Positions 50,506 through 52,966 of a stretch of 64,000 bases of DNA are shown here, piece by piece. Each line of letters starts with the position of its first letter. Position 1 is the first letter of the stretch. The translations under genes were made by a program, and so were the position numbers. Under the pieces are notes generated by a model that saw only the letters and a program-made list of their open reading frames with translations, was not told the DNA's origin and searched no databases. The DNA is taken from positions 35,726 to 99,725 of IMG/VR virus record IMGVR_UViG_2895791493_000001; one strand, written 5' to 3'. The stretch comes from a virus (Duplodnaviria; Caudoviricetes).

Positions 50506-51075
50506 ATGGCACGGAGACGCACGGAATCCCATCAGGACGGCAACGAGACCGCCGAACTGATGCCGTCCCCAGTCGTAACCGAGCAAGCCCTCAGCAGAGG
50601 ATTGAAACTTCAGCAGTGGCTGGACCGACGGGGATTACGACAGGCCGACCTTGCCCGCATGAGCGGTCTGACCGAGATGACCATCTCGAAGTACATCTCA
50701 GGGAAGACCGACATCGGGTCGATGCGGTCAGCCAGCATCACCAAGCTGCTCGACGGCATGTTCGTGAGCGACGCCTGGGCCTGGACGTATTTCGAGATCC
50801 CTGTTGAGACGCGGTCCAGCTGGCGCTCGCTGCGGCAGGGCAAGATGGGCCCGCCCGAGCAGGGCGCGCTGGAAACGTTCCTGGCCGACCTGCCCGTGCA
50901 GGGCAGTGGTTGGATGATCCCGGCCCAGAGCATGCTGACCGTCGATCCCGCCGACAAGAGCGGCGGCCTGCAGATCGGGCAGTTCGGCGGGGCGTACTGG
51001 ATCGCCAAAAAAGAAGAACAGCCCGCAGGGGCTGTCCTTCTGGGGAGATTCGTCAGCTCAGGTCCTCCCGCATAA
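50506..51075 (+). CDS. cI-like repressor (Xre HTH + degenerate S24-like C-domain)
   Basis: WLDRRGLRQADLARMSGLTEMTISKYISG; divergent from cro. Confidence 0.85.
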   Translation: MARRRTESHQDGNETAELMPSPVVTEQALSRGLKLQQWLDRRGLRQADLARMSGLTEMTISKYISGKTDIGSMRSASITKLLDGMFVSDAWAWTYFEIPVETRSSWRSLRQGKMGPPEQGALETFLADLPVQGSGWMIPAQSMLTVDPADKSGGLQIGQFGGAYWIAKKEEQPAGAVLLGRFVSSGPPA

Positions 51076-51235
51076 CCTGGAGCGCCTCTCGCACCTTCTC
51101 CATCTCGGCCTCTGTGTCGAAGTAAACGTGGTAGAGGCCGTTGTCTTCAGTGACTTCAAATTGAGCCACCTTCTGAAGCTCTACCAATTCGGCGGAATAG
51201 AGCATGGTCGGCAGAGTGAGGCGCTTGTCGGGCAT
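51053..51235 (-). CDS. 60-aa acidic protein converging on and overlapping repressor 3' end (AimX/antirepressor-like candidate)
   Basis: MPDKRLTL...EDLS; CACAAT-N6-ATG. Confidence 0.6.
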   Translation of the reverse strand: MPDKRLTLPTMLYSAELVELQKVAQFEVTEDNGLYHVYFDTEAEMEKVREALQVMREDLS

Positions 51236-51311
51236 GTGGGCATTGTGACTCAATCTGTGCTCCCGCATTACGTCATTTGCGTATAGGGTTACCTGAACGT
51301 GAAGGGATCGA

Positions 51312-51443
51312 TCAGCACTCGGCGCAGGGATCGTTTTTCACGATGGGCGGCTTGGGAGGAGGGGTCACGGTCCCTGCGGCGAGGACTCCGCTGGTCGCGG
51401 TCAGGAGGGTGAAGGCAGCGAGCATCAGAAGCGATTTCTTCAT
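51312..51443 (-). CDS. 43-aa secreted propeptide (candidate signalling peptide precursor)
   Basis: Not in ORF track. MKKSLLMLAAFTLLTATSGVLA-AGTVTPPPKPPIVKNDPCAEC; Sec signal; TAGGCT-N6-ATG. Confidence 0.85.
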   Translation of the reverse strand: MKKSLLMLAAFTLLTATSGVLAAGTVTPPPKPPIVKNDPCAEC

Positions 51444-51479
51444 GCCTCCAGCCTACGAGCAGAGCCGGAAAATAGCGAT

Positions 51480-51494
51480 ATCAACAGAGTTTAT
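51480..51494. promoter_or_regulatory. Operator-like site O3 ATCAACAGAGTTTAT upstream of peptide gene
   Basis: Close variant of O1/O4/O5; overlaps the TPR gene stop. Confidence 0.6.
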
Positions 51495-52966
51495 AGGCCC
51501 AGGGCGTCTTTAATTTCCTGGCGGAGGGCCGCGCTATCGACCCATTCAAGCGCGCGGCTCTGAGCCGCCTCCCACGACTTCCGATGCGAGAAGCGAGCCT
51601 GCTCACTGAACCGTCCAATAATCCTGATCAGTCCACCCAGATTCACGTATTCCCGCGCACCGATCTGCGTCAGGATGTCGCGGATCCGCTGCGCCGCCTG
51701 CGGATGGGGCCGGGATTCCGGACCCGTTCGGCCCGTCGCGGCGGCCAGGACCATCACCGAACTGCCGTTACTGCGCCCCGGCAGACGGTGCTGCTGGTAG
51801 CGGAACGAGAGCTCACCGCCGATCAACAGCGGCACTTCCGGCAGGCTCTCCGCCACCTCTTGATGCATCTCCGGCAGCATGGCCAGCAGCGCGAACGTTT
51901 CCGGCGCCAGCGACCGCAGCAGCGTCAGGAACGGCCCGCGTACCGTCATGGCGTTCAGGGCCGCATTGAACTCTGCAACCAGGTCGTCGATGTCGTCGCC
52001 GAAACCGCCCAGCTGATTCGCGCGGACCAGCGCGGCCGCCCGGTGAGCACGCTGGTCTGGCGTCCGGACGGTCAGACCCAGCAGCATCGTCCGGGCCTGC
52101 GCCGCCATTGGCCGGGCCTGAAGCATGCCCCACGCCCGGACGATCGAGCCGTACTCCGACTGTGGACTGGCTCCCTTGCTGAGCGGCGCGTGAAACGGAC
52201 TGCCCAGCCGCAAGGCCCACAGCGCCCGCGCCACCTGACCATACGTGTCACGCGGCTCCAGTTGATCTGCCGATTTGTGATGCCGGCCCAGCAGCGCCAA
52301 GGTGAATGCCTGGATCTCGCTGAACTTCTGATCGCCCCGTGCCAGCAGGGTTGCAGCGGTTTCGTAATCACCCAGGGCCACGTGCGACTCCGCCAGCAGT
52401 CCCAGCGCCCACAGTCGCCGGCGATCAGACAGCGGGGCGCGGTTGATGGCGTTGATCAGCAACTGCGGGTCCGGCTGGCCCATGTTCGTGTGCAGGCGGC
52501 CGATCTCCAGCTCGACGTGTTGCACCCGGTACTGCATGTCGAGCGCCTGGGCCAGCGTGCGTGCCAGATGCAGCTGCGCGAGCGCCTCCGTGAACTGCCG
52601 CGTCTCGCCGAGCGCCATGCCCCGCGCGAACGCGCCGTCGGCGGCGTCTTCCACCGCGTGGGGATCCAGGCTGGTCAGGGGGCGTTCGGACGCCTGCAGG
52701 ATGCTCGCGTACTGCCCGAGGGTGATGTTCGCCAGGAGGCGCAGACCGTGCGCGCCGCTGTCCTGCGTGCGGTCGAGCTCGTCGAGGGCTTCGTTGATGG
52801 TTTTTTTGCACCGGGTGGTCATGGCGATCCGGACCTTCCGGCGCAGGCGCAGGCTCTGAGGGGCGTCTGCGATGTCTGACACGAGTTCGGTGGGGTGGTT
52901 CGAGGTGCTGATCAGGCGGTCCCAGGTGGCGGGCGTGCTGGCGGATTCGTGCAGGGTCAGAGTCAT
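51491..52966 (-). CDS. TPR-repeat protein with possible C-terminal winged-helix; candidate peptide receptor
   Basis: TPR-like AFARGMALGETRQFTEALAQLHLARTLA and ALGLLAESHVALGDYETAATLLARG; ATG 52966 has SD GAGGT (track start 52999 lies within the promoter). Confidence 0.75.
   Translation of the reverse strand: MTLTLHESASTPATWDRLISTSNHPTELVSDIADAPQSLRLRRKVRIAMTTRCKKTINEALDELDRTQDSGAHGLRLLANITLGQYASILQASERPLTSLDPHAVEDAADGAFARGMALGETRQFTEALAQLHLARTLAQALDMQYRVQHVELEIGRLHTNMGQPDPQLLINAINRAPLSDRRRLWALGLLAESHVALGDYETAATLLARGDQKFSEIQAFTLALLGRHHKSADQLEPRDTYGQVARALWALRLGSPFHAPLSKGASPQSEYGSIVRAWGMLQARPMAAQARTMLLGLTVRTPDQRAHRAAALVRANQLGGFGDDIDDLVAEFNAALNAMTVRGPFLTLLRSLAPETFALLAMLPEMHQEVAESLPEVPLLIGGELSFRYQQHRLPGRSNGSSVMVLAAATGRTGPESRPHPQAAQRIRDILTQIGAREYVNLGGLIRIIGRFSEQARFSHRKSWEAAQSRALEWVDSAALRQEIKDALGL

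Follow-up and report, generated by a model that had tools for sequence, protein, structure and literature searches.

The analysis concerns a 64,000-nucleotide stretch of the genome of a Caudoviricetes phage (the window; positions 35,726-99,725 of IMG/VR record IMGVR_UViG_2895791493_000001) and, within it, three co-oriented genes that lie between a cI-like repressor gene and a rightward early operon beginning at 53109. In the direction of transcription these genes encode a 491-amino acid protein, termed the receptor, a 43-amino acid peptide precursor and a 60-amino acid protein (Table 1). An earlier note on this DNA, made from the letters and open reading frames (ORFs) alone, had described this arrangement, and its anatomy was confirmed: the C-terminal strings quoted for the ~491-amino acid receptor are present, the 43-amino acid ORF with a signal peptide and a short polar tail begins exactly 47 nt past the receptor stop codon, and the third ORF points into the repressor gene. 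The long ORF of the receptor runs from 52999 to 51491 (502 amino acids); the true start is placed at the ATG at 52966, since all 14 close homologues begin at that methionine.

Table 1. Coordinates of features in the window (position 1 is its first letter) and, where a locus is named, in relatives.
Feature	Position	Strand	Basis or remark
Receptor gene, 491 aa	51491..52966	minus	Start from alignment
Propeptide gene, 43 aa	51312..51443	minus	ORF and conservation in 31/31 loci
Third gene, 60-aa conserved small protein	51053..51235	minus	Alignment of 9 homologues, tblastn synteny
cI-like repressor candidate, 189 aa	50506..51075	plus	Pfam HTH_3 E 5e-7; PHROG transcriptional repressor; synteny
cro-like HTH protein, 80 aa	50123..50365	minus	Divergent from cI-like gene; Pfam HTH_31/HTH_3; synteny
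Peptide promoter region (putative)	51444..51493	minus	Weak -35 TCGCTA 51478..51473; -10 TAGGCT 51455..51450, 6 nt before ATG
Receptor promoter (putative)	53028..53000	minus	TTGACC 53028..53023, 17 nt, TAGGCT 53005..53000
Early-operon promoter (putative)	52991..53020	plus	TTGCTT 52991..52996, 18 nt, TATACT 53015..53020
Operator copy 1 (TAAACTCAGTTTA)	50376..50388		Over spacer and -10 of the promoter of the cro-like gene (80-aa HTH)
Operator copy 2	50483..50495		Over spacer and -10 of cI-like promoter
Operator copy at peptide promoter	51493..51481		Overlaps receptor stop codon, abuts weak -35 TCGCTA
Operator copy 4	52974..52986		Over receptor 5' leader and Shine-Dalgarno (GAGG 52975..52972)
Operator copy 5	53004..53016		In spacers of receptor promoter and opposed early-operon promoter
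Intrinsic terminator, 13-bp stem and T-run	51012..51041	minus	Strong; ends leftward receptor-peptide-third gene unit
Xer-like tyrosine recombinase	47261..48232		
tRNA-Ser(CGA)	49506-49580		Between cro-like gene and recombinase
tRNA-Leu(CAA)	28016-28092		Structural arm
tRNA-Gly(GCC)	28152-28245		Structural arm; call unusually long, 94 nt
tmRNA cargo region in relatives	L004:7702-8057; L012:2295-2652 (also L001, L002)		Between peptide gene and 60-aa gene

The 43-amino acid ORF has the parts of a Sec-type signal, with a Lys-Lys n-region, a hydrophobic core and a c-region of small residues (..GVLA/AG..), followed by a polar, proline-rich tail of 21 amino acids that ends in DPCAEC. Comparison with relatives revealed that this gene is a constant companion of the receptor gene. 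In total 31 complete loci were compared: the window, 11 contigs retrieved through exact look-up of the protein, 18 loci from a search of Deinococcota genomes and the most distant profile hit with a long contig (profile E 6e-13). All are from Deinococcota, and receptor identity across them ranges from 22 to 93%. A signal-peptide ORF was found directly after the receptor stop codon, or overlapping it, in 31 of 31 loci, a pairing far beyond chance. In the 13 nearest loci the two genes are separated by exactly 47 nt, and the sequence of this spacer is conserved in the near clade.

Analysis of the peptides across loci revealed a basic n-region, a hydrophobic core and a linker of 8-55 residues rich in proline, threonine, serine and alanine. 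P-C-x-x-C is present in 28 of the 30 peptides extracted by script, the two exceptions carrying PCGGDC and DCPRC; the motif forms the very C-terminus in 22 of them and is followed by 1-14 extra residues in the others. At least 13 forms of the two variable positions were found (AE, AG, AN, PG, PA, PK, PW, PS, PN, MG, YG, LG, SG, GG), and the residues before the proline of the motif also vary between loci. Judged by its sequences, this anatomy is typical of pheromone propeptides: the signal is conserved only in kind, linkers differ in length, and the end is kept. The earlier note had proposed looking for an adjacent signal-peptide ORF beside each homologue, with co-varying C-termini. The adjacency holds at every complete locus. 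The cysteine motif is conserved, but the variable positions and flanking residues do differ. The DPCAEC end is common to receptors 49% identical. Cores differ, on the other side, between two loci whose receptors share 68% identity (L001 and L004). With cores partly shared and partly different, diversification of the peptides is real but milder than in arbitrium, the peptide communication system of SPbeta-like Bacillus phages. A second, very divergent module occurs in Deinococcus sp. HMF7604 (G001:C36, L014/L051), with a receptor 25% identical, a peptide ending in KPCMGC, and cI-like, cro-like and recombinase genes belonging to this second copy; hence one host can hold two systems with different peptides.

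The receptor has neither a signal peptide nor a transmembrane segment and is therefore taken to be cytoplasmic. Searches of Pfam, PHROG and NCBIfam gave no family match beyond weak generic TPR (tetratricopeptide) repeats, seen as sub-threshold Pfam matches in nine of 15 family members; Pfam and NCBIfam revealed no helix-turn-helix (HTH), ATPase or enzymatic domain, and a profile of the receptor against all PDB sequences gave nothing below E 0.1. An AlphaFold2 model built on a 15-sequence alignment (pLDDT, the predicted local distance difference test, 88.9; pTM, the predicted template modelling score, 0.86) consists of helix pairs at residues 23-385 and a separate C-terminal domain at 388-500, in the numbering of the 502-amino acid ORF. 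The putative ligand-binding part of the receptor is predicted with high confidence to be a TPR superhelix. The TPR-type helices that had been read from the sequence are borne out by this model and the weak Pfam matches, as is the statement that the receptor has no N-terminal Xre-type HTH, the extra domain being C-terminal. Two computational outcomes had been named in the earlier note as refuting its reading, homologues without a neighbouring propeptide ORF and the lack of a predicted TPR groove; both were checked and neither came about, which supports that reading.

A fold search with VIA-align, which is independent of Foldseek, placed the sensor domain III (DT3) of MalT at the top for the receptor model (Z 18.5, 310 residues, root-mean-square deviation (rmsd) 4.3), followed by phi105 Rap with peptide (Z 15.6), NprR-NprX (15.1), SPbeta AimR (15.1, 300 residues) and RapI (14.7), and further down by phAimR (12.9), PlcR-PapR (12.6) and ComR (11.9). 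RRNPP receptors, the TPR family that includes AimR, Rap, PlcR and NprR, account for six of the nine best chains, with Z 12.6-15.6 over 190-313 aligned residues; phi105 Rap and NprR-NprX were solved with their peptide, AimR and RapI without one. For a predicted model, the crowding of peptide-pheromone receptors at the top of this list is notable. Foldseek against the viral structures of BFVD returned giant-virus repeat proteins only, and a search of the ESM Atlas yielded no clusters other than generic TPR or hypothetical ones.

A profile search of 1.8 billion representative proteins revealed 89 clusters of the receptor family, nearly all of 440-550 amino acids, which indicates that fused or split forms do not occur. 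A receptor match was found in 16 of 364 Deinococcota genomes. Residues kept family-wide in the TPR part are R54, R87, R158, Q160, R168, R194, Y212, Y253, Y283, D315 and Q316. Sliding-identity and entropy analyses of the receptors picked out no specificity region.

The C-terminal domain (about residues 388-500) is an alpha/beta unit of a beta-hairpin and five helices in the model, and a model of the domain alone, built from 29 diverse sequences, had a pLDDT of 90.9. It carries the family-wide motifs P-L-L-x-G, L-P-G-R and V-N-x-G and a conserved tryptophan, and it is basic, with a median isoelectric point of 9.4 against 6.5 for the whole receptor. Being conserved throughout the family and basic, it is the likely output domain, and it may act by binding DNA or a protein. 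The proposal of an OmpR/SARP-type winged helix at this end was not established: the best VIA-align match of the domain was the SARP regulator AfsR at Z 5.1 (112 amino acids, rmsd 4.5), which is at noise level, and EmbR reached Z 3.7. No Pfam match, no LuxR-type HTH and nothing in a profile search of PDB sequences was found for it.

The gene order at the locus is kept family-wide as integrase, cro-like HTH gene, cI-like HTH gene, third gene (where present), peptide gene, receptor gene and divergent early operon. The placement in the immunity region proposed earlier is thus conserved across the family, and the genes share operators. Analysis of the window revealed five copies of the palindrome TAAACTSAGTTTA (13 bp, up to two mismatches), against 0.04 expected in 64 kb, and all five lie within 50376-53016. 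In relatives this operator was found at the same three places, and the position of copy 5 is kept in L005-L011; a more distant relative has a different palindrome, GTAAAGCGGCTTTAC, at the same three places. The functions given here to promoters and operators are drawn from consensus, geometry and conservation. No sigma-70 site passed the thresholds of a consensus promoter scan, and the promoters rest on TAnnnT geometry.

The TAGGCT-N6-ATG geometry at the peptide gene suggests that its mRNA is leaderless, starting from a predicted promoter, and a TAnnnT hexamer ending 5-8 nt (typically 6) upstream of the peptide start was found in 27 of 30 loci. The cI-like gene starts with the same leaderless geometry (TATAGT-N6-ATG), and the cro-like gene has TAGGAT-N6-ATG. 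Leaderless mRNAs are frequent in Deinococcus: in D. deserti they make up 60% of mRNAs, and the -10 consensus is TAnnnT (PMC4007540). From their positions, the operator copies over the promoters of the receptor gene, the early operon, the cI-like gene and the cro-like gene appear repressive, and the copy at the peptide promoter appears activator-like. The centre of that copy lies at about -44, and phage lambda cI activates PRM from a position near -44. These repressive and activator-like positions suggest that lysogens may broadcast the peptide and that freshly infecting genomes may express the receptor. Comparison of HTH recognition helices with operator types singled out neither the cI-like nor the cro-like protein as the operator binder.

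Two features of the nucleic acid stand beside these elements. Within the peptide ORF there is an inverted repeat of 17 nt (51318-51334 and 51367-51383; 88% complementary, 32-nt loop) whose two arms, able to pair, fall on the codons for the mature N-terminus and on those for DPCAE; it may be an RNA element or may have arisen by chance in GC-rich DNA. A GC-rich hairpin (CCCCCTCTCC ... GGAGAGGGGG) at 53040-53095, within the predicted 5' leader of the rightward early operon, is conserved in several relatives and may be an attenuator or a processing site.

The third ORF spans 51268..51053, with its conserved start at ATG 51235, and shares 23 nt with the convergent cI-like gene at the 3' end of the latter, in keeping with the earlier description. 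Its 60-amino acid product has no match in Pfam, PHROG or PDB sequences. The gene is present in most loci, and where cargo follows the peptide gene it stays with the repressor gene; since it travels with the repressor gene and not with the peptide gene, equivalence to aimX of arbitrium phages is not established. Such cargo was found in four loci (L001, L002, L004 and L012), where it sits after the peptide gene and never between receptor and peptide genes. It comprises a full-length tmRNA gene (Rfam 163-172 bits), an RNase H-like gene of 214 amino acids and an AAA_22 ATPase gene of 955-988 amino acids, and could be a cargo or defence island in the immunity region. The tmRNA beside the peptide gene (L004, L012) was considered as an attachment site and rejected, as it lies within conserved gene order and is more likely cargo. 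In one further locus (L052) the neighbouring genes differ and are IstB-like and ParA-like.

The terminator that ends the leftward unit lies in the final 20 codons of the cI-like gene, which runs in the opposite direction. Transcription from the two sides would thus collide over the 3' end of the repressor gene, and antisense or transcriptional interference may occur there. The Xre/HTH_3 domain of the cI-like protein is N-terminal. Neither this protein nor the cro-like protein showed similarity to solved repressors such as DdrO. A phmmer match (E 8e-6) between cI-like residues 26-54 (50581-50667), in the HTH region, and BurrH, a TALE-like repeat protein, in which no separate stretch passed, was set aside as a probable compositional or repeat artefact.

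The phage record is 99,725 bp long and its first 7,117 bp are identical to its last 7,117 bp, which gives a genome of about 92.6 kb that carries direct terminal repeats or else is circular. IMG/VR lists the record in its direct terminal repeat class, and CheckV puts its completeness at 100%. The cro-like gene heads the leftward arm, which holds DnaD-like replication, terminase, portal, major head and tail-fibre genes; the record is thus that of a complete phage with direct terminal repeats and with terminase, portal, capsid and tail genes. A single ORF of 2,126 amino acids on the minus strand of the tail region (8954-15334) probably encodes a giant protein of tape-measure or tail-fibre type. 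The rightward arm carries genes for a 916-amino acid ParB-like protein and methyltransferase-like genes. In one relative (G083), contig C8 (188,830 bp) carries two copies of the module spaced 94,416 bp apart and looks like a head-to-tail dimer of an element of about 94 kb; together with the ParB-like gene, this apparent dimer suggests a phage-plasmid lifestyle in some hosts. Deinococcus sp. HMF7604, Deinococcus sp. HMF7620 and D. soli are the named sources of receptor relatives; as all are members of Deinococcus, the phage probably infects this genus, as had been supposed. Three carrier genomes encode 7-8 oligopeptide-binding proteins each (family 5, SBP_bac_5), the presence of which indicates capacity only.

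Comparison with arbitrium revealed several points in common: a phage-borne gene for a cytoplasmic TPR receptor, a gene for a Sec-exported propeptide and a small downstream gene, a location in the lysis-lysogeny control region, and a propeptide whose conserved part is the C-terminus. In arbitrium, binding of AimP to AimR lowers aimX expression and leads to lysogeny (PMC8612738). There are also differences. AimR has an N-terminal HTH, whereas the receptor described here has a 115-amino acid C-terminal domain and no match to the NCBIfam AimR model; the arbitrium peptide is a 6-mer ending in G-G/A, whereas the peptides here end in P-C-x-x-C; and the hosts are Bacillota there and Deinococcota here. 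Furthermore, the third gene here encodes a conserved protein overlapping the tail of the repressor gene, and the peptide gene has its own putative promoter of leaderless type beside an immunity operator.

The Rap-Phr systems of phages and of integrative and conjugative elements (phi105 Rap; RapI-PhrI of ICEBs1) consist of an HTH-less TPR receptor and a secreted propeptide and serve derepression of the mobile element (PMC9765709). The module described here likewise has a TPR receptor without HTH and a secreted propeptide on a mobile element, and phi105 Rap is its second-best structural match. However, the effector part of Rap is an N-terminal three-helix bundle whereas the extra domain here is C-terminal, and there is no sequence similarity. 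Derepression by RapI-PhrI in ICEBs1 runs via ImmA/ImmR; a gene for an M78 (ImmA/IrrE) protease was looked for in this phage and none was found. MalT, a STAND regulator whose domain III is the best structural match, has a C-terminal DNA-binding domain after its sensor domain, and the receptor shows the same order of sensor and C-terminal domain. Unlike MalT, it starts directly with the repeat domain and has no upstream NB-ARC/AAA ATPase module; the ligand of MalT is a sugar and not a peptide, and no LuxR-type HTH was found in the C-terminal domain here. PlcR-PapR and NprR-NprX also combine a TPR receptor with an adjacent exported propeptide (Z 12.6 and 15.1), but their receptors carry an N-terminal Xre HTH, their genes are chromosomal, and they have been described from Bacillota only (PMC10075063, PMC9765709).

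Among the features that define RRNPP(A) systems, a TPR superhelix (in the model) and an adjacent gene for an exported propeptide (in 31 of 31 loci) were found, whereas sequence homology to the family models and an N-terminal Xre HTH (as in AimR, PlcR, NprR, PrgX and Rgg) or three-helix bundle (as in Rap) were not. Since no sequence model of the family matches and the N-terminal effector domain that defines it is missing, membership of the RRNPP family is not shown, and the likeness may reflect convergence or very remote homology. Descriptions of RRNPP/arbitrium-type peptide quorum sensing are confined to Bacillota and the mobile elements of that phylum (PMC10075063, PMC9765709), and a literature search found no such system described for Deinococcus.

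Overall, our analysis gives a slight preference, a little better than even, to the view that the module senses a peptide in the manner of RRNPP and arbitrium systems and forms part of the lysis-lysogeny switch of a temperate Deinococcus phage, though by sequence it is not recognisable as an RRNPP member. Anatomy, fold, strict pairing and placement are as expected for such a sensor. The 43-amino acid product, which has the anatomy of a Sec substrate, would be exported and its signal peptide removed. The tail would be trimmed to a short peptide with the P-C-x-x-C end, probably closed by a disulfide loop outside the cell. This peptide would build up with the density of infected or lysogenic cells and could be re-imported by an Opp/Dpp-type permease. 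Inside the cell it would dock on the concave face of the predicted TPR superhelix, and binding would switch the basic C-terminal domain, which may then act on DNA or on the cI-like or cro-like proteins. A wider reading, that viral peptide communication evolved independently in a non-Bacillota phylum with an outer membrane, with lysogens broadcasting a C-x-x-C-loop pheromone and incoming phages listening through a TPR receptor that acts on the cI/cro switch, is plausible but tentative, and we place it somewhat short of even.

Several observations weigh against the sensor interpretation. No sequence homology was found between the receptor and any RRNPP/AimR model (NCBIfam AimR NF038310, Pfam, PDB sequences). 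Foldseek of the whole receptor model against PDB gave generic TPR matches only, all at E >1e-3, and the VIA-align scores of Z 15-18 are only moderately above those of unrelated helical repeats. The C-terminal domain has no convincing fold match, as Foldseek returned nothing below E 1 and a second VIA-align examination gave Z values up to 4.2. The sharing of DPCAEC by receptors only 49% identical counts on the same side: as the sequences stand, pherotype diversification is below that of arbitrium, unless the residues before the motif carry specificity. The Cys-x-x-Cys end could have a different function, in redox or metal chemistry. Finally, Deinococcus has an outer membrane and a thick envelope, which the peptide would have to cross twice.

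Some of these observations would suit a linked pair that does not communicate, in which the secreted cysteine-motif peptide is an extracytoplasmic effector (in superinfection exclusion, against competitors, or in periplasmic redox or metal chemistry) and the TPR protein regulates it, chaperones it or confers immunity to it. Strict linkage in all 31 loci would also suit this explanation, conservation of the motif far exceeds that usual for pheromone cores, a conserved C-x-x-C resembles redox and metal motifs, and a peptide gene with its own putative promoter beside an immunity operator could be a moron expressed in the lysogen. Yet the mature part of about 15-55 residues is mostly a low-complexity Pro/Thr/Ser linker with 5-6 conserved residues, too little for a folded effector; its partner is a cytoplasmic TPR protein with an RRNPP-like predicted fold and no export signal; and no modification or export genes are adjacent in the loci examined. 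We regard this explanation as unlikely, but as one to be taken seriously. The possibility that the small ORF is the precursor of a ribosomally made modified peptide or bacteriocin, matured with the aid of the TPR protein, draws on the conserved cysteine-containing core at the end of a leader-like sequence; that leader, however, is a Sec signal of the usual type, no gene of the radical-SAM, lanthipeptide, protease or ABC-export kind lies nearby, and the TPR protein has no enzymatic domain, so that we hold it to be very improbable.

The pairing itself could also be a matter of descent within one phage lineage, with the TPR protein as a ligand-independent regulator or anti-repressor and the small ORF as an unrelated, co-inherited membrane or secreted moron. 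All loci do belong to a single syntenic Deinococcota lineage, so their co-occurrence is not independent, and the putative receptor promoter lies under an operator like those of other early genes. The pair nevertheless persists while receptor identity drops to 22% and peptide linkers become unalignable, and it remains whole where the neighbours have changed (L052) and where cargo has been inserted (L001/L002/L004/L012). Simple co-inheritance is accordingly judged improbable.

If the sensor interpretation is true, the module is possibly the first viral communication system of arbitrium-like type to be seen beyond the Gram-positive Bacillota, and viral 'small-talk' reaches another phylum with a different cell envelope. 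It would bring with it a new receptor architecture and output domain and a new cysteine-containing pheromone chemistry, spread across a lineage of ~90-kb Deinococcus phages. Such systems escape sequence-based detectors and need to be sought through gene-pair anatomy and fold. For radiation-resistant bacteria with almost no phage biology, a synthetic 6-10-mer of the peptide would offer a handle on the control of lysogeny.

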